The notes under the pieces are model-generated. The model was not told the DNA's origin, searched no databases, and was given only the letters and a program-made list of their open reading frames with translations. From an uncultured beta proteobacterium (lineage in GTDB: Bacteria > Pseudomonadota > Gammaproteobacteria > Burkholderiales > SG8-39): DNA of 64,000 nucleotides. Shown one piece after another: positions 4,611 through 24,614 of the stretch. Where the stretch lies: assembly GCA_963744255.1 (NCBI GenBank), contig CAVUSZ010000019.1, positions 11,096 to 75,095 on the forward strand, written 5' to 3'. Each line of letters begins with the position of its first letter. Within the stretch, counting starts at the first letter, position 1. The position numbers and the translations under genes were made by a program.

Positions 4611-6445
4611 GCGGGCAACGGGGCGGCGGCAGTCGGTGCCGGGGTGGCCTGCAACGCCTTCAGCTCGTCCTCGTTCAGCGTCTCTTTCTGCAGCAGCAGT
4701 TGCGCGCCCCGCTCGAGGATGGCGCGCCTGTCGTTGAGAATTCCGATCGCCTTGGCGAGCGCGCGGTCGACGAAGCCCTTGACCGCGGCGTCGATCTCGC
4801 GCGCGGTCTCCTCGCTGTACTCGCGGCTCTTCAGCGCGCCGCCCGGCAGCGCGAGAAACGGGCTCTGCTCGGACTCGTACGCAATCGGACCGAGCTTCTC
4901 GACCATGCCGAAGCGCGTGACCATGCTGCGCGCGATGTTGGCGACCTTCTGCAGGTCGTCGGCCGCGCCGGTGGAGATCTCGTCGAAGACGACGTGCTCC
5001 GCCGCACGGCCGCCGAGCAGCACCGCCATCTTGTTTTCGAGCTCGCTGGTCGTCATCAGGAACCGGTCCTCGAGCGGGCGCTGGATCGTGTAGCCGAGCG
5101 CGCCGATGCCGCGCGGGATGATCGAGATCTTGTGCACCGGATCGGCGCCGGGCAGCGTCATCGCCACGAGCGCGTGTCCCATCTCATGATAGGCGACGGT
5201 GCGCCGCTCCTTCTCGTTGAGGACGCGGTTCTTCTTCTCCAGCCCGGCGACGATGCGCTCGATGCCGTCGTGGAAGTCCTTGAGCGAGACAGCCGTAGCG
5301 CCGTGGCGCGTGGCGAGGAGGGCGGCCTCGTTCACCAGGTTCGCGAGATCGGCGCCGGAGAAGCCGGGGGTCAGCGCGGCGATCTTCTCGGGATCGACGT
5401 CGTCCGCGAGCTTCACCTTCTTCAGATGCACCTGCAGGATCTCGATCCTGCCTTTCTTGTCGGGGCGGTCGACGAGCACCTGGCGGTCGAAGCGGCCGGC
5501 GCGGAGCAGCGCCGGATCGAGGATTTCGGGCCGGTTGGTCGCGCCGATCAGGATCAGCCCGCTCGAGGAGTCGAAGCCGTCGAGTTCGACCAGGAGCTGG
5601 TTCAGCGTCTGCTCCTTTTCGTCGTGACCGCCGACGCCGTACGCGCCGCGCGCGCGCCCGAGCGCGTCCAACTCGTCGATGAAGATGATCGCCGGCGCGA
5701 GCTTGCGCGCCTGGTCGAACAGGTCGCGCACCCGCGCCGCGCCGACGCCGACGAACATCTCGACGAACTCCGAGCCGTTGATCGACAGGAACGGCACCCC
5801 CGACTCCCCGGCGACCGCGCGGGCGAGCAGCGTCTTGCCGGTGCCGGGCGGGCCGACGAGCAGGATGCCCTTCGGAAGCCGCCCGCCGAGGCGGCCGTAC
5901 TCCTTCGGGTTCTTCAGGAACTCGACGACCTCCCTTAGCTCCTCCTTCGCCTCGTCGACGCCGGCAACGTCGTTGAACGTCACCTTGACGTCCTTTTCCA
6001 TGTAGATCTTGGCCTTGCTTTTCCCGATCGACAGGAATCCGCCGCCCATGCCCTGTTTCTCGGCGAACTTGCGCATGACGAACCACCACAGGCCGAAAAA
6101 GACCATCGCCGGCAGCACGAACCCGAGGATGTCGCGCAGGAACGTGCTCTCGAGCACCCCGGTGTACTTGACGTTGTACTGCTCGAGGTCCTTGGCGAGC
6201 CGTTCGTCCACCCGCACCGCGACGAACCGGGTGCGCTTGTCGGGGAGCGGCTCCTTGAACTTGCCCTCGACGGTGTTCTCGCGCACCACGACCTCCTCGA
6301 TCTTGCCCTGCTTGAGGTAGTCGACGAACTCGCTGTAGGTGATCGGCTCGACGGTGCGCATCTCGACCCACACGCTGTGGAGCCACATCACGGCGAGTGC
6401 CGCGAGGACGAAGTACCAGAGGTTGATCTGCGTTTGTCGTTCCAT
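4607..6445 (-). CDS. ftsH: ATP-dependent zinc metalloprotease FtsH (paralog)
   Basis: Walker A GPPGTGKT, Walker [13 protein letters not shown] region and HEMGHA zinc site are present. I prefer the start at [12 protein letters not shown] (cat at 6443-6445) over the 6565 start in the ORF track. Confidence 0.9.
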
Positions 6446-11475: not shown

Positions 11476-12194
11476 GCGCGCCAGCGCCGCTGCTCGCCGT
11501 CGACGGCCTGGATCTCTACTACGGCGATGCGCAGGCGCTCGCCGGCGTCGCGCTCGAGGTGCCCGCGGGCGAGATCGTGGCGATCGTCGGGGCGAACGGT
11601 GCGGGGAAAACGTCTCTCATCCGGGCGATCGCCGGTATCGAGACGCCGCGGGCCGGCCGCATCCGGTTTCGGGGCCGCGACGTGACCGGGCTCGGCTCGC
11701 ATGCGACCTGCGAGCTCGGCATCGGGCAGGTTGCCGAGGGACGCCAGGTGTTTCCTTCGCTCACGGTGCTCGAGAACCTGGCGATGGGCGCGATGCTGCC
11801 GCGGGCGCGGGGACGAACGAATCAGACGCTGGGCGAGGTGTACGCTCTCTTTCCGCGGCTGGCCGAGCGCAGGCAGCAGGTCGCGGGGACGCTTTCAGGC
11901 GGCGAGCAGCAGATGCTTGCGATCGGGCGGTGCCTGATGGGACGGCCGGAACTGGTCATGTTCGATGAGCCCTCGCTCGGACTCGCGCCGACCATCGTGC
12001 AGGAGGTGTTTCACGCCGTTCGCATGCTGCACGAGCGGGGCCTGACGATCGTCCTCGTCGAGCAGAACGTCGCAGTCTCGCTCAAGCTCGCGCAGCGTGC
12101 ATACGTGCTCGAGAACGGGCACGTTGTGATGCAGGGGACCGGCGCCGAGCTGCTCGCCGATGACCGGGTGCGGCAGGCTTATCTCGGGCTTTGA
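11472..12194 (+). CDS. livF: ABC transporter ATP-binding protein (LivF-like)
   Basis: ATGA overlap with livG. Walker A GANGAGKTS, signature LSGGEQQM and Walker B MFDEPSLGL are present. Confidence 0.9.
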   Translation: MSAPAPLLAVDGLDLYYGDAQALAGVALEVPAGEIVAIVGANGAGKTSLIRAIAGIETPRAGRIRFRGRDVTGLGSHATCELGIGQVAEGRQVFPSLTVLENLAMGAMLPRARGRTNQTLGEVYALFPRLAERRQQVAGTLSGGEQQMLAIGRCLMGRPELVMFDEPSLGLAPTIVQEVFHAVRMLHERGLTIVLVEQNVAVSLKLAQRAYVLENGHVVMQGTGAELLADDRVRQAYLGL

Positions 12195-12338
12195 GCCGTG
12201 GCATGACGGAGTGCGCGTCTGGGTCGCGTGCATGCAAGGCTGGCACGGCTCCTGCTCTGAGTAGGATAACTTTCGCCTTTTTCCTCCTCCTTTGGGGTGA
12301 AAGTCGTTTACCTAGGGGACTTCGGTCCCCTTTTTTTT
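12193..12338 (+). ncRNA. Candidate 3'UTR-derived structured RNA ending in the liv terminator
   Basis: A long imperfect hairpin (GAGCCGTG..CACGGCTC, 12193-12251) is followed by a single-stranded CU-rich tract TTCCTCCTCC, the GGGGTGAAAGTC core and the terminator. The tail is about 70 percent identical over about 45 nt to 26440-26504. Confidence 0.3.
12315..12338 (+). terminator. Rho-independent terminator of the liv operon
   Basis: GGGGAC-TTCG-GTCCCC hairpin followed directly by T8. Confidence 0.8.
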
Positions 12339-12545
12339 GCTATACCGAAAGCTATACCGCGGGCTGGCTCAGCCGGTGAACAATTTCACGGCGACCAGGG
12401 CGGCGCGGTGGTCGGGCGTCCAGCATACGTGCGGAGCCTATGCCAGATTGCCGACAGCGGGGCAAACATTGACGCTGGACGGCGTCGGTTCACCCAGCGG
12501 GCTCCTCGCGCCGCCGTACTTCGATCACGCTTCAATGGTCCGCCG

Positions 12546-12717
12546 GGAACCTACAGCGCGCTTGGCGCGAGCAGCACGCTGATATCCGTTGATCCCTCGC
12601 GCCAGGGCGTCGCGGTCTTCCTGACCCAGTTCATGCCCGGGGCAGGCCCGAGCGGTCGACGCGATCGCCTATCGCAACGAGTTCAACGCGGCGGTCGATA
12701 CCGACCTCACACGCTAG
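12546..12717 (+). pseudogene. C-terminal remnant of a beta-lactamase-related serine hydrolase
   Basis: GTYSALGASSTLISVDPSRQGVAVFLTQFMPG resembles the family's conserved C-terminal block. The tail continues in another frame (AVDAIAYRNEFNAAVDTDLTR-stop). No catalytic N-terminal part is present. Confidence 0.4.
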
Positions 12718-12723
12718 TGATCC

Positions 12724-12924
12724 TCACGCGCCGCAGTGCGCGGCTTCGGCGCGCTTTCCTTCATCCAGCGCTGCGAAAAGCCGATCGCGGCGGATCAATC
12801 CGGCGCCCGAGGGACGCGTGAGCTTCGCGGGAAGAGGTGCCTTCGTCGTCTTTACGATACGAAGAGCGCGAGTCCCGCGCTCCACGGGATCGGAGAATGT
12901 CTGTGCGCTCCTTTCTCTGGACAT
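12724..12924 (-). pseudogene. N-terminal 66-aa stub of a MalT/LuxR-type large ATP-dependent regulator
   Basis: APLPAKLTRPSGAGLIRRDRLFAALDEG matches the usual N-terminal signature (TKL.RP....LV.R.RL...L) of this family. The ORF stops after 66 aa, whereas relatives are about 900 aa. Confidence 0.4.
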
Positions 12925-13294
12925 TTCGCGAGCGAAGGCGGGTCGGCGCCAAGCGCGATGCTATACCGATCAGCGCCGAGCTCCAGCTTGCGGCGTGAGC
13001 GGCGAGATTTCGATACCGCAATGATGCAGGCCTAGTTCAAACAGCGCTCGTCCGTACGGCATAGGTGCGCACTTCGGAGGCTTAGCGCGCATTTGGCATA
13101 CCTAGGGCATGACCGCTCGCTGCGGGGGAAACGCGTGGCGAGCGGCCGACCCTGCTCTTCGGCTTAGAACCTCCGGTCGATTGTCCGCACTCGCGCCCGT
13201 CGCCACACTTTGCTTCGTCACGTGTCAAGCGATACCCATACGTGGCGATACACGACTCAAGCAGTCTCTTTCAACTTTTCTAGGAGAACGCATC

Positions 13295-13540
13295 ATGAAA
13301 GACCTGGACGAAGCGAAGCGCATCAAGTCTTGCGAGGTCGCCGATCTCGCGAGCGAAGGTGTGCAACGCGCCTTGGCGGCGCGCAAGGCCGCGCTCGAGC
13401 TGACACCGGCGCAAACCGAAGAAGTGAGCGGCGGCATCGGGTTTGTAAACCCGATCATTTACGGCGGACCCTTCTTCACCAGTGCCGTCAATCCGGCCAG
13501 TATGCCGGGTCTCGGGGCCGGCAAGACCGTCGGTTTCTAA
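13295..13540 (+). CDS. Double-glycine-leader precursor peptide (microcin/bacteriocin-like): 47-aa leader plus 34-aa core
   Basis: AGGAGA lies 8 nt upstream of ATG 13295. The leader ends LELTPAQTEEVSGG (GG codons 13430-13435). The core is IGFVNPIIYGGPFFTSAVNPASMPGLGAGKTVGF. A C39-peptidase ABC exporter and a CvaA-like adaptor are co-oriented downstream. Confidence 0.7.
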   Translation: MKDLDEAKRIKSCEVADLASEGVQRALAARKAALELTPAQTEEVSGGIGFVNPIIYGGPFFTSAVNPASMPGLGAGKTVGF

Positions 13541-13551
13541 GGACGACACCA

Positions 13552-13986
13552 ATGCCCGCCAAAACCGAGACGCTTTGCCCCAGTGCCCAGCCTGATTGGG
13601 AAGGGGCGCGGCTGTTCGCGGTGGTGGGCGGCACGCCGGAAAAGCCGGAAACGGCCTATCTCGATCGGACTCAGCCGGTGACGCAGGAAGTGCTCGAGCT
13701 GGCTGGGCCGGTCGCGCCGGCGGAAGTTTTCCGCTTCGCAGCTCCGTGCGTGCAGCGCGGTTGCGGTCATTACGACGGCACCGAACACAAGTGCCGTCTA
13801 GCCGAAAAGACCGTGCGATGGATGCCGGTCGCGGTCGAGAAGCTTCCGCCGTGCGCAATTCGGCCCTCATGCCGCTGGTGGCAGCAAGAAGGTCGCGCGG
13901 CATGCCGGCGTTGCCCACTCGTCGTGACCAATAACTACGCACCGACCGACGCGATGCGCGATGCAGCCGATTTCAATCTGAAGTAA
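13552..13986 (+). CDS. Cysteine-rich 144-aa protein of unknown function
   Basis: It starts 11 nt after the precursor stop. There are eight Cys, in CVQRGCGHYDGTEHKC and PPCAIRPSCRWWQQEGRAACRRCP blocks. It has no TM segment or signal peptide. No family recognised. Confidence 0.65.
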   Translation: MPAKTETLCPSAQPDWEGARLFAVVGGTPEKPETAYLDRTQPVTQEVLELAGPVAPAEVFRFAAPCVQRGCGHYDGTEHKCRLAEKTVRWMPVAVEKLPPCAIRPSCRWWQQEGRAACRRCPLVVTNNYAPTDAMRDAADFNLK

Positions 13987-14050
13987 CGCGAGGCTTGTCA
14001 GGGCGTTCGGACAGTTCGCAGCCGCTCGACAAGCGTCTCGCTCGATTCAG

Positions 14051-15298
14051 ATGACTACCCAACTCTTCAGACAGGAAGCTTTAACCGCCAGGGCAGACTG
14101 CCTTCACGGCAGCACGCTCGCGACCTATTCGCCATCGCTTGCCTTGCTGACGATCGCAGCGGCCCTGATAGCCGTGGCAATCGTCAGCTTTGCCGTTTGG
14201 GGTGAGTACACCCGCAAAGAACATGTCACCGGATATCTCGCGCCAACAAAGGGTTTGATCAAGATTGTTACGCCGCAGGCGGGGACCGTGATCGAGAAGC
14301 ACGTTGCCGAAGGGCAAGCAGTTGTGCAAGGCGACACCTTGCTGGTTATCACCAGCGAACGCGCGACTTCGACCACACATGAGGCGCAAGCAGCAGTGCT
14401 GCTCGAGCTTCGCCGCAGGCGCGACAGCTTGCGCAGCGAAGAGGCTAACCAGGCCGAGATCGACGCTCTAGCCGCGCAGGGGCTCGCCGAGCGCAGACGC
14501 CATCTCGAGATGGAGCTCGCGCAGGCGCGAGAGCAAATGGAACTGCAGCGCCAGCGCGTTGCGAGCGCCGAGCGCACAGTCAAACGATACGAAGAGTTGA
14601 TCGCGGCCCGTTTCGTCGCCCCGGCGACACTTCAGCAGAAACAAGAGGAGTTGCTGGAAGCGCGCGGCCAGCTCTCGAGTCTGCAACGCGGCATCACCAC
14701 CCTCGCTCGCGATATCAACGCCGCGCGCATGGAGATCGCATCGAGCGGCCTCAAGCGCGCCAACAATTCGGCTGCGTTGCAGCGGCAGATTTCGGAGCTC
14801 GAGCAGAATCTCACGGAGGCCGATACGCGCAGGCACGTGGTGCTCACCGCGCCGGCGAACGGCACGGTGACGACAATCCTCGCCGAGATCGGGCAAGCTG
14901 CGAGCCCCGGCACGCCGCTTCTTTCCATCCTGCCCGACGGTGCGGAACTGGAGGCGCACTTGCTTGTGCCGACCCGCGCCGCGGGCTTCATCAAATCGGC
15001 GCAGCCGGTTGCGCTGCGCTATCAGGCATTTCCCTACCAGCGGTTCGGCCATTACTTGGGCGAGGTGAGCGAAGTCGGCCGCACCGTGATCCAGCCGAAC
15101 GAATCGAACCTTCCTCTGCCGGTGCAGGAACCCGTGTATCGCGTCACCGTGCGTTTGCCCGCGCAGCTTGTTCTCGCATATGGACAAAGCATTCCGCTGC
15201 AGGCAGGTATGGCGCTCGACGCCGACGTGTGGGTCGACCGGCGACGCGTGATCCAGTGGGTGTTGGATCCTATCCTTTCAGTCACGGGGCGCGTCTAA
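14051..15298 (+). CDS. HlyD/CvaA-family periplasmic adaptor (bacteriocin secretion)
   Basis: It has the N-terminal LFRQEAL motif typical of colicin V secretion protein CvaA, a single N-terminal TM segment, a long coiled-coil and a C-terminal beta-barrel region. Confidence 0.9.
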   Translation: MTTQLFRQEALTARADCLHGSTLATYSPSLALLTIAAALIAVAIVSFAVWGEYTRKEHVTGYLAPTKGLIKIVTPQAGTVIEKHVAEGQAVVQGDTLLVITSERATSTTHEAQAAVLLELRRRRDSLRSEEANQAEIDALAAQGLAERRRHLEMELAQAREQMELQRQRVASAERTVKRYEELIAARFVAPATLQQKQEELLEARGQLSSLQRGITTLARDINAARMEIASSGLKRANNSAALQRQISELEQNLTEADTRRHVVLTAPANGTVTTILAEIGQAASPGTPLLSILPDGAELEAHLLVPTRAAGFIKSAQPVALRYQAFPYQRFGHYLGEVSEVGRTVIQPNESNLPLPVQEPVYRVTVRLPAQLVLAYGQSIPLQAGMALDADVWVDRRRVIQWVLDPILSVTGRV

Positions 15299-15307
15299 GG
15301 GACAGCG

Positions 15308-17450
15308 ATGCTCGATCTCTCGATCGCGCGACGCACGCCCATAGTTCTACAAACCGAGGCCGCCGAATGCGGCCTCGCCTGTCTCGCGATGATCGCGAGC
15401 CACCATGGGCACCGCATCGATGTCGCCAGCTTGCGCGCCCGCCACGCGATCTCGCTCAAGGGTGTCAGCCTGGCGGACCTCATGCGAGTCGCGGCAAGTC
15501 TGCAACTTGCGCCGCGTGCGCTGCGGCTCGAGCTGGAACACTTGCGCGAGCTCAGGCTGCCCTGCCTCGCGCACTGGGACTTCAACCACTTCGTCGTGCT
15601 TACCCGGGTACGCGGTGACCGAGTGACTTTGCACGATCCGGCGATCGGCCGGCGCGACATGGGCATCGCGGAGTTTTCCAAGCATTTCACCGGCGTCGCG
15701 TTGGAGCTTTCGCCGACGCACGAGTTCGCGCGGCGGCCGCAAGCGCCGCGTGTGCGCCTCGCCTCGCTCATCGGCCGCTTACCGGGACTGCCTGGGACTG
15801 TCACTCAGGTGATCGTCCTCGCGCTCGTGCTGCAACTCGTCGCGATCCTTGGTCCGTTCTACATGCAATGGGTGCTCGACCATGCGATCGTCGCCCAGGA
15901 CCGCGATCTCCTCGTTGTGCTCGCCGTCGGATTTCTCGCGCTCGCGCTGATCCAGACTGGCGTCAATGCGCTGCGCGCCTGGGTGCTGATGGTTCTCGGC
16001 ACTACGCTCAACCTGCAGCTCGCGTCGAATCTATTCCGCCATCTGATTCGATTGCCGATGGCGTGGTTCGATCGCCGCCATATGGGCGACGTCGTGTCGC
16101 GCTTCGAATCGCTCAACACCATTCAACGCACGCTGACCGTGGATTTACTCGAGGCAATGATCGACGGTGTGATGGCACTCGTCACGCTGGCGATGATGCT
16201 GCTCTATAGCGTCAAGCTGGCGTTGGTTGCCATCGTCGCCGCGACGTTGTACGCGGCACTGCGGTTGGCACTCTACCGGCCGCTGCGGCTCGCGACCGAG
16301 GAGCGAATCGTGCGTGGGGCGAAGCAGCAAAGCCACTTTCTCGAGACGGTACGCGGCATGCAGAGCATCAAGCTTGCCGTGCACGAGAACCAGCGCACCA
16401 GTGGCTGGCAGAACCTGATCGTGGATCAATTCAATGCCGGCATCCGGACGCAACGGCTGGGAATCCTCTATCAATCGCTCAACGGGCTGCTGTTCGGAAT
16501 CGAGAATGTCGTCACGATTTCCCTCGGCGCAGCGCTGGTCCTCGATGCACCGAAGGGTGCCGGCTTCTCGGTGGGGATGCTGTTGGCTTTCGTGGCCTAC
16601 AAGACCCAGTTCGTCCAACGCGTGGCGGGTCTCATCGAAAAGGGGTTGGAGCTCCGTATGCTGACCCTGCATTCCGATCGCGTAGCGGACATCGCGCTCG
16701 AACCGGCCGAACCCCATGCTGACCTCGCGCCCGTCGGTGCCGTCCCCGTAGCCGGATCGATCGAATTGCGAGGTGTGTCGTTCCGCTACGCCGATTCGGA
16801 CCCGTTCGTGCTCGAGAAACTCGACCTACACATCGAGGTGGGCGAATCGGTAGCGATCGTCGGGCCCTCCGGGTGTGGGAAGACGACGCTGGTGAAGCTC
16901 ATACTTGGCCTGCTGCAGCCGCTCGAGGGAACGATCGCTGTTGGCGGCGTCCCCCTTGCGCGTCTTGGCCTTGCGCGCTATCGCGGCGATGATCGCGAGC
17001 GTGATGCAGGACGACCAGCTCTTTGCCGGCTCGATCGGTGAAAACATCTCGTTCTTCGACCCGCAACCGGATCATGCGCGCATCGAAGCTTGTGCGCGGC
17101 GTGCCGCCGTGCACGAAGACATCGCCACGATGCCGATGCAATACAACACGCTGGTCGGAGACATGGGAACGGTCCTCTCGGGTGGACAAAAGCAGCGGGT
17201 CTTGCTTGCGCGGGCGCTGTACCGCGAGCCGCGGATTCTCGTTCTCGACGAAGCGACGAGCCATCTGGACGTCGCGCGCGAGCGCAGCGTCAATGAAGCG
17301 GTGCGCGCTCTCAAGCTCACCCGCATCATCGTCGCTCATCGACCAGAAACCATCGCTACCGCCGACCGCGTCGTGGCACTCGGAGGTGGACGCATCGTCC
17401 ACGACATGGAAGTGGTGGAAGGAAAGGCCGCTCGCGCGGAAGCGGCCTGA
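15308..17450 (+). pseudogene. Peptidase-C39 ABC transporter (PCAT, CvaB-like); one +1 frame break near 16978-16990 as assembled
   Basis: C39 motifs QTEAAEC21GLACLAMI and NH94FVVL are present, followed by a six-TM region and Walker A GPSGCGKTT in ORF 15308..17041. Q-loop VMQDDQLF, signature LSGGQKQR and Walker B ILVLDEATSHLD are in ORF 16905..17450, in the +1 frame. Confidence 0.85.
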
Positions 17451-18061
17451 ACGAGAACACTGCTGCTGATTCACGCCGTGCGCGGTGCGCAGGACGCGCT
17501 ACTCGACTCGGAGGAGCTCGACGACGAGGCGCTCGACCGGATGCGCGCGCGGTACGCCGCCCTCGCCGAGCGCGCATGCGCTGCAGGCGGCGAGGTGCCG
17601 GCGCCGGTACCATCGACTGCAGGGCAATCGCGTCGCCAGCGACGCAGCCCGCGCGAGCGACGGCGGGGCTAGGCAGTTTTAACGAAGCGAGGGGCCACAT
17701 TCCCTCGCGCTTCCCAAAGCCCAGGAACGACGCGTTCGCCGGCGGTTTCTTCCAAGCCTCAGGGCCAGCACGGCGCCGTCCCGGGTCATCGCCGGAGCGG
17801 CCGCATCCGGCGCGCCCGGATCTCCAGCTTTCATCGTGGCTTTTTTGCGTCGTCGCCACGGACAACGGTAACTCTTACTGCAGGCCTCCAGCGACGACTT
17901 TCCCTCAAGGTATTGATTCCACACGCAGCCTCGCCCGGGTACGGCTGTTGCAGTGAGGGCGACAGCAGGACCTTAGCTTAGCAGCACCGTAGCAACTAGC
18001 GCTCGCAGCCGGGAATACCCCGACGGCGAGCCCGAGCGAAGTGTTTAGCTAGGAGTCGATC

Positions 18062-18229
18062 ATGTTTTCATGGGCAGTGACGTTTCTGGTGATTGCGCTG
18101 ATCGCGGCGGTATTCGGGTTCACCGGGATCGCGGGTACGGCGGTCAACATCGCCTGGATCCTGTTCGTCGTCGGACTGATCCTCGCGGTCGTGTTCTTCG
18201 TCTTCGGGCGGCGTAGCCCGCCCCTGTAG
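18062..18229 (+). CDS. DUF1328 (UPF0391) small membrane protein, 55 aa
   Basis: It is not in the ORF track because it is under 60 aa. Sequence [55 protein letters not shown], with AGGAG 6 nt upstream. Confidence 0.75.
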
Positions 18230-22865: not shown

Positions 22866-23875
22866 ATGAGTCAGGCCAAAACCCACGCCGCGCAAGTGGG
22901 CGGCGCCACTGCCGAGAAGCAGCGCGCCATTCAGCGCGAGCAGGACGCGCGCGACCGGGCGAAGTCGCGCAAGGGCGGCAAATCCGGTGGCGACAAGCCG
23001 GTGCAGGCCGGTACTCGCGAGCAGCCGGAGGGGCTGCCTGCCCAGCATCTCGAGAAACCCGGCCGGGAAGCTGATCTGGAGCTTGCGCCGCGCTTTCTGG
23101 CGCCGGACTACAAGGGCAGCGGCAAGCTCGAGGGCATGGCCGCGATCGTGACCGGCGGCGACTCGGGCATCGGGCGCGCGGTCGCGGTGCTGTTCGCGCG
23201 CGAGGGCGCCGACGTCGCGCATCGTCTACCTCGAACGAGCACGAGGACGCGAAGGACACGCAAGCGCACGTCGAGGCCGAGGGCCGCCGCTGCGTGACCA
23301 TCTCCGGCGACGTCAAGGACATGCGCGTTCTGCGAGCAGGCGGTCGAGGAGGTGGTGCGCAAGCTCGGCCGCCTCGACGTCCTCGTCAACAACGCCGCAT
23401 TCCAGGAGCACGCCGCATCGCTCGAGGACATCACCGACGAGCGCCTCGACGAGACATTGCGCACCAATGTCTACGGCTACTTCCACATGGCGCGCGCCGC
23501 GCTGCCCGCACCTCAAGCGCGGCGCATCGATCATCAACACCGGCTCGGTCGTCGGCCTGGAAGGCAGTGCGCAGCTGCTCGACTACTCGACCACCAAGGG
23601 CGCGATCCACGCGTTCACCAAGTCGCTCGCGCAGAACCTGCTCGACAAGGGCATCCGCGTCAACGCGGTTGCGCCCGGCCCGGTATGGACGCCGCTGAAC
23701 CCGGCCGACCGACCGGCCGAGAAGGTCGCGCAGTTCGGCCAGCAACACCGACATGAAGCGCGCCGCGCAGCCCGAGGAGATCTCGCCCGCCTTCGTGTTC
23801 CTCGCGTCGCCGGTCTGCTCGGGCTACATCACCGGCATCGTGCTGCCGATCACCGGCAGCGTCGGCGCCATCTAA
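22866..23875 (+). pseudogene. YghA/general-stress-protein-39-type SDR oxidoreductase broken by five +1 frame shifts
   Basis: The full family sequence can be read across frames 0>1>2>0>1>2: ..TGGDSGIGRAVAVLFAREGADVA | IVYL | NEHEDAKDTQAHVEAEGRRCVTISGDVKD | FCEQAVEEVVRKLGRLDVLVNNAA..ARAALP | HLKRGASIINTGS..YSTTKGAIHAF..APGPVWTPL..AQFGQQ | TDMKRAAQPEEISPAFVFLAS..ITGSVGAI-stop. The span is 1010 nt, which equals 335 codons plus 5. Confidence 0.8.
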
Positions 23876-24614
23876 CGCAGGACAACCTCGAGGTTGCCGA
23901 CCAGGCGGGCGAGGAGGACAGAGCATCGATCGAAAGCGAGTGCTCTACCGGTTCATTGCGTCTTATCACAAGGGACAGGCCTCTCCCGGCGACTGACCCG
24001 GACGCCGCCCCGGAACGCCGTTTGCAGGTCATGCTGCGTCGGAACTCGACCGCGATCGTCGTGGCGCGGACACGGCGGCCGTAGTCGGCTCGCCTCATTG
24101 ACCTCGGGCCGGCGCGGAGCCATCCGGACGTCCTGGCCTCTCTAAGGTGCATTCCCGCGATGCCACGGGCCGCCAAACGCGCCTTGGTGCTGCGAGGGAT
24201 AGCGTCCTCTCGCGCTCTGGCGATGACCCGGAGCGAATCGACCTCACCGGATACGAGTCGCTCGTACCAGACATAGCTGCGTGCGATCGCCTTGATCGCG
24301 CGCGCGGCGAGCATCAAGAGCGCGCACATCCCCGGCTCGGGCGCAAGCCCGTGTACGTGGACCGCGGCAATGCCAAATCGTGTAGAGGGCCAGTTGGCGG
24401 CACAGATGCGATTCTCAGCGTCGATCGACCGCCTGGGTCTGATCGCAAGCAGCGCCAAACTGACGAGATCGGAGCAACAACAGAACGATCCGCGCGCGAG
24501 GCTATCGCGCGCGGATCGTGTCACACCAGTCCGGGCCGTCGTCGTCCTGAAGCTGCCGATCGCACGATTGCGGACCACAACAGCGAGAGGCCGGCCTGCA
24601 ACGTTACGTGGCAC
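23850..24614 (-). pseudogene. Decayed recombinase (serine-recombinase-type C-terminal region) remnant
   Basis: IKAIARSYVWYERLVSGEVDSLRVIARAREDAIPRS resembles the ARAHRW...LESGE..S..E.A...G...SYV block of resolvase-related recombinases. The expected L.LAP.IV..I continuation is only visible, degenerate, in another frame. No intact catalytic domain is present. Confidence 0.3.

Follow-up and report, generated by a model that had tools for sequence, protein, structure and literature searches.

A four-gene operon in the 64,000-nucleotide (nt) stretch of contig CAVUSZ010000019.1 analyzed here ("the window"; GenBank assembly GCA_963744255.1, uncultured beta proteobacterium) begins with two genes that, judging from sequence comparisons, form a widespread undescribed two-gene module: a precursor of a double-glycine (GG) peptide and a 144-amino-acid (aa) protein with eight cysteines. 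On balance, and with modest confidence, we read the locus as an operon resembling those of peptides that are synthesized ribosomally and modified posttranslationally (RiPPs), in the order precursor, maturase, adaptor, and peptidase-exporter, in which the eight-cysteine protein would be a leader-dependent maturase. What is new here is the precursor/eight-cysteine pair. Export of double-glycine peptides by a peptidase-containing ATP-binding cassette (ABC) transporter (PCAT) and an HlyD-type adaptor is already well known. An earlier prediction, made from the letters of the window alone, had described four co-oriented, closely spaced genes with a good ribosome binding site before the first. The sequence and the list of open reading frames (ORFs) bear this out: all four lie on one strand, with intergenic gaps of 11, 64, and 9 nt. 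Their features, in window coordinates, are as follows.

13282-13286, + strand: Shine-Dalgarno sequence AGGAG, 8 nt 5′ of the precursor ATG at 13295 (read from the sequence)
13295-13540, + strand: precursor gene, 81 aa, predicted as a 47-aa leader and a 34-aa core (ORF, leader-helix hidden Markov model [HMM])
13340-13384, + strand: leader helix, precursor residues 16-30, ADLASEGVQRALAAR, which aligns with the helix motifs of the family
13394-13435, + strand: double-glycine cleavage motif (residues 34-47), LELTPAQTEEVSGG, with cleavage predicted to follow G47 (sequence)
13451-13468, + strand: core motif PIIYGG, residues 53-58 (family motif [IVL][IVL]xG[GILF])
13552-13986, + strand: gene of the eight-cysteine protein, 144 aa, candidate leader-dependent maturase (ORF)
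14051-15298, + strand: gene of the HlyD/CvaA-type membrane-fusion adaptor, 415 aa (PF13437)
15308-17450, + strand: gene of the C39-peptidase ABC exporter (PCAT), its frame interrupted (PF03412, PF00664, PF00005)
16988, + strand: additional G, lying between Walker A and the Q-loop, by which the PCAT gene is thrown out of frame (tblastn and DNA alignments)

The precursor reads MKDLDEAKRIKSCEVADLASEGVQRALAARKAALELTPAQTEEVSGG followed by IGFVNPIIYGGPFFTSAVNPASMPGLGAGKTVGF. The double-glycine leader that had been proposed for it stands in part: the GG is there, with V at −4 and L at −12, and position −7 is Thr, which is not hydrophobic. The predicted 34-aa core after the GG reads as previously quoted. 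It is hydrophobic (grand average of hydropathicity [GRAVY], 0.71), rich in Gly and Pro, and free of Cys, and its calculated monoisotopic mass in the unmodified state is 3382.74 Da. A leader-helix HMM built without the window picked out the 81-aa ORF as its sole match in the 64 kb (E = 6.9e-6), and a sister contig (L091, described below) carries an identical precursor, there called as an 81-aa gene. Neither Pfam nor NCBIfam matched the precursor, including the Nif11 (PF07862) and NHLP leader models, and scans of it with PADLOC and PHROGs found nothing.

The same kind of leader recurs beside the eight-cysteine gene in other genomes. Among species-representative genomes, 247 stretches encode a relative of the eight-cysteine protein. 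The 80 kept as the locus set, in which each relative is at least 50% identical to the query, span Beta-, Gamma-, and Alphaproteobacteria, many Cyanobacteria, Acidobacteria, Chloroflexia, and Longimicrobium. The leader-helix HMM matched an ORF beside the eight-cysteine gene in 67 of these 80 loci, always on the same strand and nearly always directly upstream, with a few extra copies just downstream. The original prediction had staked itself on the small ORF being conserved, and it is. The helix motif reads GV.RALAAR in Proteobacteria and AV.NAVARR in Cyanobacteria, and the related precursors usually have an LS..E...V.GG site. A GG-leader pattern was found in 63 of the 86 family tails; the GG site of family members gives subthreshold matches to TIGR01847 and lanthipeptide-leader models, with TIGR01847 scoring 12.9 to 13.3 bits on precursor homologues, below its cutoff of 15.7. 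The tails are variable except for a short motif, for instance, PIIAGG, PIIYGG, PIICGG, or PILVGII. In the form [IVL][IVL]xG[GILF], this motif occurred in 59 of the 86 precursor tails, compared to 10.5 expected from shuffles. The marks of a RiPP system that can be seen are a conserved leader, a variable core, and a precursor coupled to the eight-cysteine gene; enzymatic modification we infer.

Not all relatives of the precursor are built alike. The precursors of Acidobacteria, Chloroflexia, and Longimicrobium lack a GG leader. So do those of Thiothrix/Thiolinea, which have no linked exporter and contain three to seven tandem PPVVAGG-LPxPTP repeats, so that what is repeated is the core motif itself. 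A plasmid of Thiothrix fructosivorans carries one of these precursors. The repeat precursors, each with a P-V-V-A-G-G motif per repeat, are the following.

L001, 7434-7952: repeat precursor, Thiothrix/Thiolinea
L029, 5622-5987: repeat precursor, Thiothrix/Thiolinea
L030, 5403-5876: repeat precursor, Thiothrix/Thiolinea
L032, 5597-5968: repeat precursor, Thiothrix/Thiolinea

Natural fusions also occur, in which a leader-like helix is followed by a low-complexity linker and the eight-cysteine domain (proteins P0127, P0138, and P0195). The P0127 fusion was present on two independent contigs (L089, 4001-4774; L090, 1753-2526), and both P0127 and P0138 carry a Y-D/E-I/F-G-G-W motif. On L089, the fusion adjoins Nif11 and NHLP precursors and a radical SAM gene. 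In several gammaproteobacterial loci, a second family of GG peptides, with a core like LSDFHxxAWPxIN, is encoded just upstream of the helix-leader precursor; it has no counterpart in the window.

L004, 7441-7632: second GG-peptide family
L025, 5461-5667: second GG-peptide family
L024 and L026, about 5485-5682: second GG-peptide family

EbfG biofilm peptides and HetP-type precursors were considered as relatives of the precursor family and set aside, as there was no resemblance to the three quoted EbfG peptides or the published HetP motif, which were what the comparison covered (PMC4997328, PMC3140520).

The second gene encodes a protein with cysteines at positions 9, 66, 71, 81, 101, 107, 118, and 121. 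It is soluble, with a maximum 19-residue hydropathy of 0.95 and no transmembrane segment. As had been claimed, it is Cys-rich and unrecognized: Pfam, NCBIfam, PADLOC, and PHROGs gave no match to it or to the distant and fused family members that were also scanned, PF04055 and PF13186 included, and a profile search of PDB sequences returned no meaningful relative. The only traces were faint and subthreshold, to DUF6083, a phage zinc-binding-domain family, and phrog_16378 (E = 0.004 to 0.3). The family is nonetheless easily found. A word-indexed search returned 363 proteins with 57 to 99% identity, nearly all annotated as "hypothetical" and one as "nitrogen fixation protein," and an exhaustive profile search gave 1128 clusters (50% identity) at E ≤ 1e-3, 783 of them at E ≤ 1e-10. 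No description of the family was found in the literature. By these searches, it is a large, undescribed family outside Pfam, NCBIfam, PADLOC, and PHROGs.

Some trends were apparent within the family. Among 127 diverse members, conservation is 90% or more at each of the eight cysteines, and R61 and R104 do not vary. An RWW.QEG block is invariant in two 22-sequence alignments, as are the Cys and Arg residues. This enzyme-like pattern of conservation, as read from the alignments, supports the view of the protein as a putative maturase. AlphaFold2 run on the 127-sequence alignment gave a model with a predicted local distance difference test (pLDDT) score of 96.6 and a predicted template modeling (pTM) score of 0.89, compared to a pLDDT of 47 and an unusable model with only 22 close homologues. 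Foldseek comparison of the good model with the PDB found nothing better than E = 1.5 and template modeling (TM) scores of ≤0.16, and the best E value against BFVD was 0.47.

Three known kinds of protein were weighed as identities for the eight-cysteine protein and rejected. One was a SPASM-like Fe-S domain standing by itself; when the family profile was aligned by hhalign with neighboring radical SAM/SPASM proteins, the probability was 0.2%. PlpY of the spliceotide clusters was set aside by its description as a predicted single enzyme-binding helix (PMC11414181), and a second point against that identity is that the cyanobacterial loci have a separate 59- to 60-aa ORF after the radical SAM gene. 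The third was LanX of the class V lanthipeptides, which does not fit because CaoX is an APH-family protein (PMC9486802).

The surroundings of the pair differ among phyla. In about 20 proteobacterial loci, and in Proteobacteria only, HlyD and PCAT genes stand directly 3′ of the pair, in the full four-gene order. The small ORF with its canonical GG motif is the only GG peptide of the operon in those proteobacterial loci, as it is in the window. Outside the exporter-linked loci, the pair is usually on its own. Most members of the family lack an exporter next to them, and the pair is the sole conserved neighborhood in the Thiothrix, Acidobacteria, and Longimicrobium groups. In 15 to 19 cyanobacterial loci, the pair is found among an APH-type kinase, a HopA1-type lyase, a radical SAM/SPASM enzyme, Nif11 precursors with YG motifs, a peptidyl-prolyl isomerase (PPIase), and HlyD, and these Nif11 neighbors do match the Nif11 model. 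By its predicted gene content, this is a peptide-modification neighborhood. In Nostocales and Trichodesmium, the pair lies inside larger clusters (L084, 2265-9124; L065, 5614-11578; L074, 3583-6417) that contain Nif11 precursors with YG motifs, the radical SAM/SPASM gene followed by the 59- to 60-aa ORF, and the APH kinase and HopA1 lyase genes. L084 has two copies of the eight-cysteine gene.

The other two genes of the operon make up an export half of an ordinary, well-known type. The family models and homology to a PDB structure support the original claim of a double-glycine peptide export locus, and the models it had named for checking (PF03412, PF00664/PF00005, and PF13437) all match. The adaptor, which had been called CvaA-type, matches PF13437 at 2.4e-17 and PF16576 at 9.6e-13 and has a hydrophobic segment, LALLTIAAALIAVAIVSFAVW, near its N terminus. 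It is 44 to 68% identical over its full length to the adaptors of related loci. TIGR01843 matches it at 1.1e-41 with 143 bits, under the cutoff of 208.65. The HlyD domains and the predicted N-terminal membrane anchor are those of an HlyD/CvaA protein. The exporter matches PF03412 (C39) at 3.7e-37 over model positions 2 to 132 of 133 and PF00664 at 6.3e-35, and it has both halves of PF00005. Of the solved structures, it is closest to PCAT1 (4RY2; E = 2.7e-95 over residues 11 to 699), with whose Cys and His motifs QTEAAECG and NHFVVL align, so that the C39 Cys and His noted by the original prediction hold up and the exporter has a predicted N-terminal C39 peptidase domain with both catalytic residues. 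The best NCBIfam model, TIGR03796, gave the N-terminal part 363.4 bits and the C-terminal part 132 bits, below its cutoff of 853.3. Several of the closest exporter homologues were labeled "RaxB" by JGI annotators.

Relatives of this exporter serve other precursors. A good example of this is Nitrosomonas oligotropha (GCA_900110385.1; L093, 1442-6184), where a 67-aa GG precursor and a 352-aa radical SAM enzyme precede a 415-aa HlyD protein and a PCAT that is 71% identical to that of the window; it is an apparently uncharacterized peptide locus of the radical SAM type, served by this same clade of exporters. Since a radical SAM enzyme holds the slot in this sister locus, the eight-cysteine gene occupies the place of a known type of maturase. 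In a Burkholderiales metagenome-assembled genome, the PCAT is 68% identical and only plain GG peptides stand before the adaptor. Judged by gene order, the exporter clade is modular and appears to accept different maturase modules in one gene slot.

If the eight-cysteine protein is a maturase, the pathway might run as follows. The leader helix (residues 16 to 30) would dock onto the soluble eight-cysteine protein, which probably has two Cys4 metal sites and would modify, or at least bind, PIIYGG (residues 53 to 58). The C39 domain of the PCAT would recognize LELTPAQTEEVSGG and cut after G47 during export; the domains are seen in the window, and the mechanism is by analogy with CvaAB, RaxAB, and PCAT1. 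By analogy with CvaAB-TolC, RaxAB-RaxC, and PCAT1, the PCAT would work with the HlyD-type adaptor and an unlinked TolC-like outer-membrane channel; within the 64 kb of the window, there is neither a TolC-like gene nor a further copy of any operon gene. After the GG cut, a hydrophobic peptide of 34 aa would be released as the product. The precursor/eight-cysteine pair would be an ancient module that was joined in Proteobacteria to a dedicated exporter clade. More tentatively still, the eight-cysteine protein could be a new metalloenzyme fold, guided by the leader helix, that makes an undescribed modification at hydrophobic-hydrophobic-x-Gly and defines a new RiPP class in at least five phyla. 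We hold equally tentatively that such a class might comprise single-core, multicore (Thiothrix), and enzyme-fused variants, with the proteobacterial members exported by the dedicated PCAT clade.

Several points weigh against the maturase reading. We infer both the modification of the core and the enzymatic role of the eight-cysteine protein, which has no recognizable catalytic fold or cofactor motif. Many loci have no exporter and some precursors have no GG site, which means that export is not intrinsic to the pair. TIGR01847, the double-glycine model, does not match the window precursor at E ≤ 0.1. The leader-helix HMM was built from the loci that it scored, leaving out the window, and within-locus scoring is therefore circular; the match in the window and the specificity for strand and position are not. 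The fusions of precursor and eight-cysteine domain could equally well be explained by a helix that serves as a subunit and not as a substrate tag. Finally, the exporter ORF is interrupted in the window. The lack of a catalytic motif or known fold is also what would be expected if the peptide left the cell without modification, as a signal or a toxin like the class II microcins, and the eight-cysteine protein were a noncatalytic leader-binding chaperone or holdase or handed the peptide over to the exporter. Fusion of the leader helix to the eight-cysteine domain fits such a stable binding pair, the very hydrophobic core (GRAVY, 0.71) and its motif may need solubilizing, and the same exporter clade handles plain GG peptides. 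However, the pair is kept in many genomes without a linked exporter and with GG-less precursors, and its conservation (at least 50% identity across phyla, with invariant Arg, Glu, and Trp) exceeds what is usual for a holdase. A core motif that is short, conserved, and repeated is what modification sites typically show, and in the sister locus the same slot is taken by a radical SAM enzyme. We consider a chaperone role rather unlikely.

A function of the eight-cysteine protein in immunity or self-protection against a toxic peptide is suggested by its gene, which immediately adjoins that of the precursor in an operon offering no other immunity candidate. The original prediction had noted no obvious immunity gene; in agreement with this, no immunity-like gene is conserved in the related loci, and neither they nor the operon has a conserved small membrane protein. 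Yet the eight-cysteine protein is soluble by the hydropathy given above, is much better conserved than the variable cores, while an immunity protein would normally be expected to diverge with its toxin, and co-occurs with nonexported, repeat-type precursors, all of which makes this role highly improbable. The pair might instead be an intracellular module that has no part in peptide production, such as a metal- or redox-sensing regulator with a helical partner, in which case the exporter would carry some other cargo or only the C-terminal tail. For a redox or metal sensor, the eight conserved cysteines would be fitting, fused versions exist, and most family members have no adjacent exporter. 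Against it stand the roughly 20 proteobacterial loci in which the small ORF is the operon's only GG peptide, the absence of any DNA-binding domain detectable with Pfam, and the peptide-biosynthetic context in Cyanobacteria, and we regard it as quite improbable. The maturase reading is the one that we prefer.

The interrupted exporter calls for a closer look, as it raises the question of whether the locus is a decaying, nonfunctional remnant in this genome. The exporter is not the single ORF that the original prediction had taken it to be, the frame break at about 16985-16988 having been overlooked. The ORF at 15308-17041 ends early, and the remainder of the ATPase domain lies in another frame, to 17450. 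With intact homologues as queries, tblastn follows one frame to 16984 and another from 16986, and DNA alignments with L008, L009, and L091 show one inserted base in the window. The extra G at 16988 cuts the ATPase domain after Walker A, and the GC content below that of the flanks suggests acquired DNA, both of which favor decay. However, the sister contig L091 (ENA ERZ25039541:contig_47726), which is 99.45% identical to window positions 5309-27455, has an intact exporter of 713 aa, so that complete membrane and ATPase domains in one polypeptide are found there and not in the window. In silico deletion of G 16988 restores a stop-free 713-aa protein; BLASTP reports 100% identity between the L091 exporter and this repaired protein, and the gene comparison gives 2 aa differences. 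That G is the sole indel inside the four genes, and 12 of their 14 substitutions are synonymous: none are in the precursor gene, one is in the eight-cysteine gene and six are in the adaptor gene (all synonymous), and seven are in the exporter gene (two replacements). The identical precursor and mostly synonymous changes point to purifying selection on the four genes. Over the 22 kb compared, the two contigs differ by 15 indels. A short-chain dehydrogenase (SDR) gene (window, 22866-24084; L091, 17560-18564) is intact in L091 (334 aa) and lies in three frames in the window, where it has five single-base insertions and 44 mismatches within about 550 nt, which looks like a locally error-rich assembly stretch or a degraded copy. 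These indels, with the five SDR-breaking insertions in the window alone, point to assembly error. The PCAT is intact in all of the approximately 20 proteobacterial loci except on the error-fragmented contig L007. L007 and L008 are near-identical metagenome contigs (ENA) with the same locus, with HlyD and PCAT shattered into small ORFs in L007 and intact in L008, a contrast that is a further sign of common indel errors in such assemblies. For G 16988, an assembly error is no less likely than a true mutation; the base is probably either such an error or a very recent mutation. A decaying remnant is distinctly unlikely.

Among known systems, the closest in architecture is raxX-raxST-raxA-raxB of the raxX-raxSTAB system of Xanthomonas oryzae, which makes the sulfated RiPP RaxX (PMC6637879; bioRxiv 10.1101/442517). 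It has, in the same order, a GG-leader precursor, a single modifying enzyme, an HlyD-type adaptor, and a C39 PCAT, and its outer-membrane channel is likewise encoded elsewhere. It differs in that the enzyme is the sulfotransferase RaxST, whereas the window has the unrelated 144-aa eight-cysteine protein, which neither Pfam nor NCBIfam matches. The leader in the window is also longer, with a conserved helix, and the core is unrelated to RaxX/PSY.

The colicin V system, CvaA-CvaB-TolC, shares the double-glycine leader, the C39 PCAT with its Cys and His, and a CvaA-like adaptor. The colicin V leader has about 15 aa, compared to the 47 aa of the window leader, and the window has no immunity gene and an extra conserved cytoplasmic protein. 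Furthermore, its precursor family is kept with the eight-cysteine protein even where no exporter is linked. By sequence, the locus thus appears to have neither the short leader nor the adjacent membrane immunity gene of a class II microcin. The original prediction had doubted that the precursor was a textbook class II microcin and had proposed a leader-guided modified peptide as one alternative. The cross-phylum helix of the long leader, the pairing with the eight-cysteine gene, the radical SAM enzyme in the corresponding slot, and the lack of a conserved immunity-like gene support this doubt; modification would fit them.

The NHLP/Nif11 peptides (TIGR03793, TIGR03798, TIGR03796) also have long helical leaders that end in GG, with one leader family serving hypervariable cores. 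Moreover, TIGR03796 is the best NCBIfam model of the exporter, and cyanobacterial members of the family adjoin Nif11 precursors. In contrast, the window precursor matches neither leader model, the exporter reaches 363 bits against the cutoff of 853, and the partner protein is new.

The spliceotide clusters encode the radical SAM enzyme PlpX, the activator PlpY, and precursors with an XYG splice motif (PMC11414181). Both systems have a short core motif that ends in Gly (x-Y-G in the spliceotides; hydrophobic-hydrophobic-x-G in our family, with PIIYGG in the window) and a small helical element that binds the enzyme, which in our case would be the leader helix. The pair also adjoins radical SAM/SPASM genes and YG-containing Nif11 precursors in about 15 cyanobacterial loci. 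Unlike PlpX, the eight-cysteine protein is not a radical SAM/SPASM enzyme by the hhalign result above, the motif lacks a conserved Tyr, and radical SAM genes are missing from the proteobacterial loci.

The pair is best filed under the RiPP/GG-peptide kind, with a fair chance that it represents a new enzyme fold and a new RiPP class. Its second protein has a confidently predicted fold without a structural or sequence relative, yet it is found in more than 1000 sequence clusters over distant phyla. Should it be a maturase, natural-product research would gain a new enzyme fold, a new family of leaders with which to mine genomes, and a minimal system of two genes easily tried in Escherichia coli. 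Should it be noncatalytic, it would still be an unrecognized, widespread peptide-binding partner.

With respect to its surroundings, the locus has a lower GC content than the backbone, as had been stated (0.62 to 0.65 over 13 to 17 kb, compared to about 0.67 to 0.70 in the surroundings). The description of its flanks as "gene debris" found no support: the flanking ORFs within 12297-13032 and 17359-17953 have no Pfam matches, and L091 has no gene calls in the regions that match both flanks. No sigma-70-like promoter was found in 12100-18100, and no Rfam families or tRNAs were found near the locus. A strong, terminator-like hairpin, AGGGGACTTCGGTCCCCT followed by T7, lies at 12314-12331, 3′ of the upstream branched-chain amino-acid ABC transporter genes. 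The approximately 1 kb between this hairpin and the precursor gene, which is without a recognizable gene, differs from the sister contig by 12 mismatches and 3 indels.

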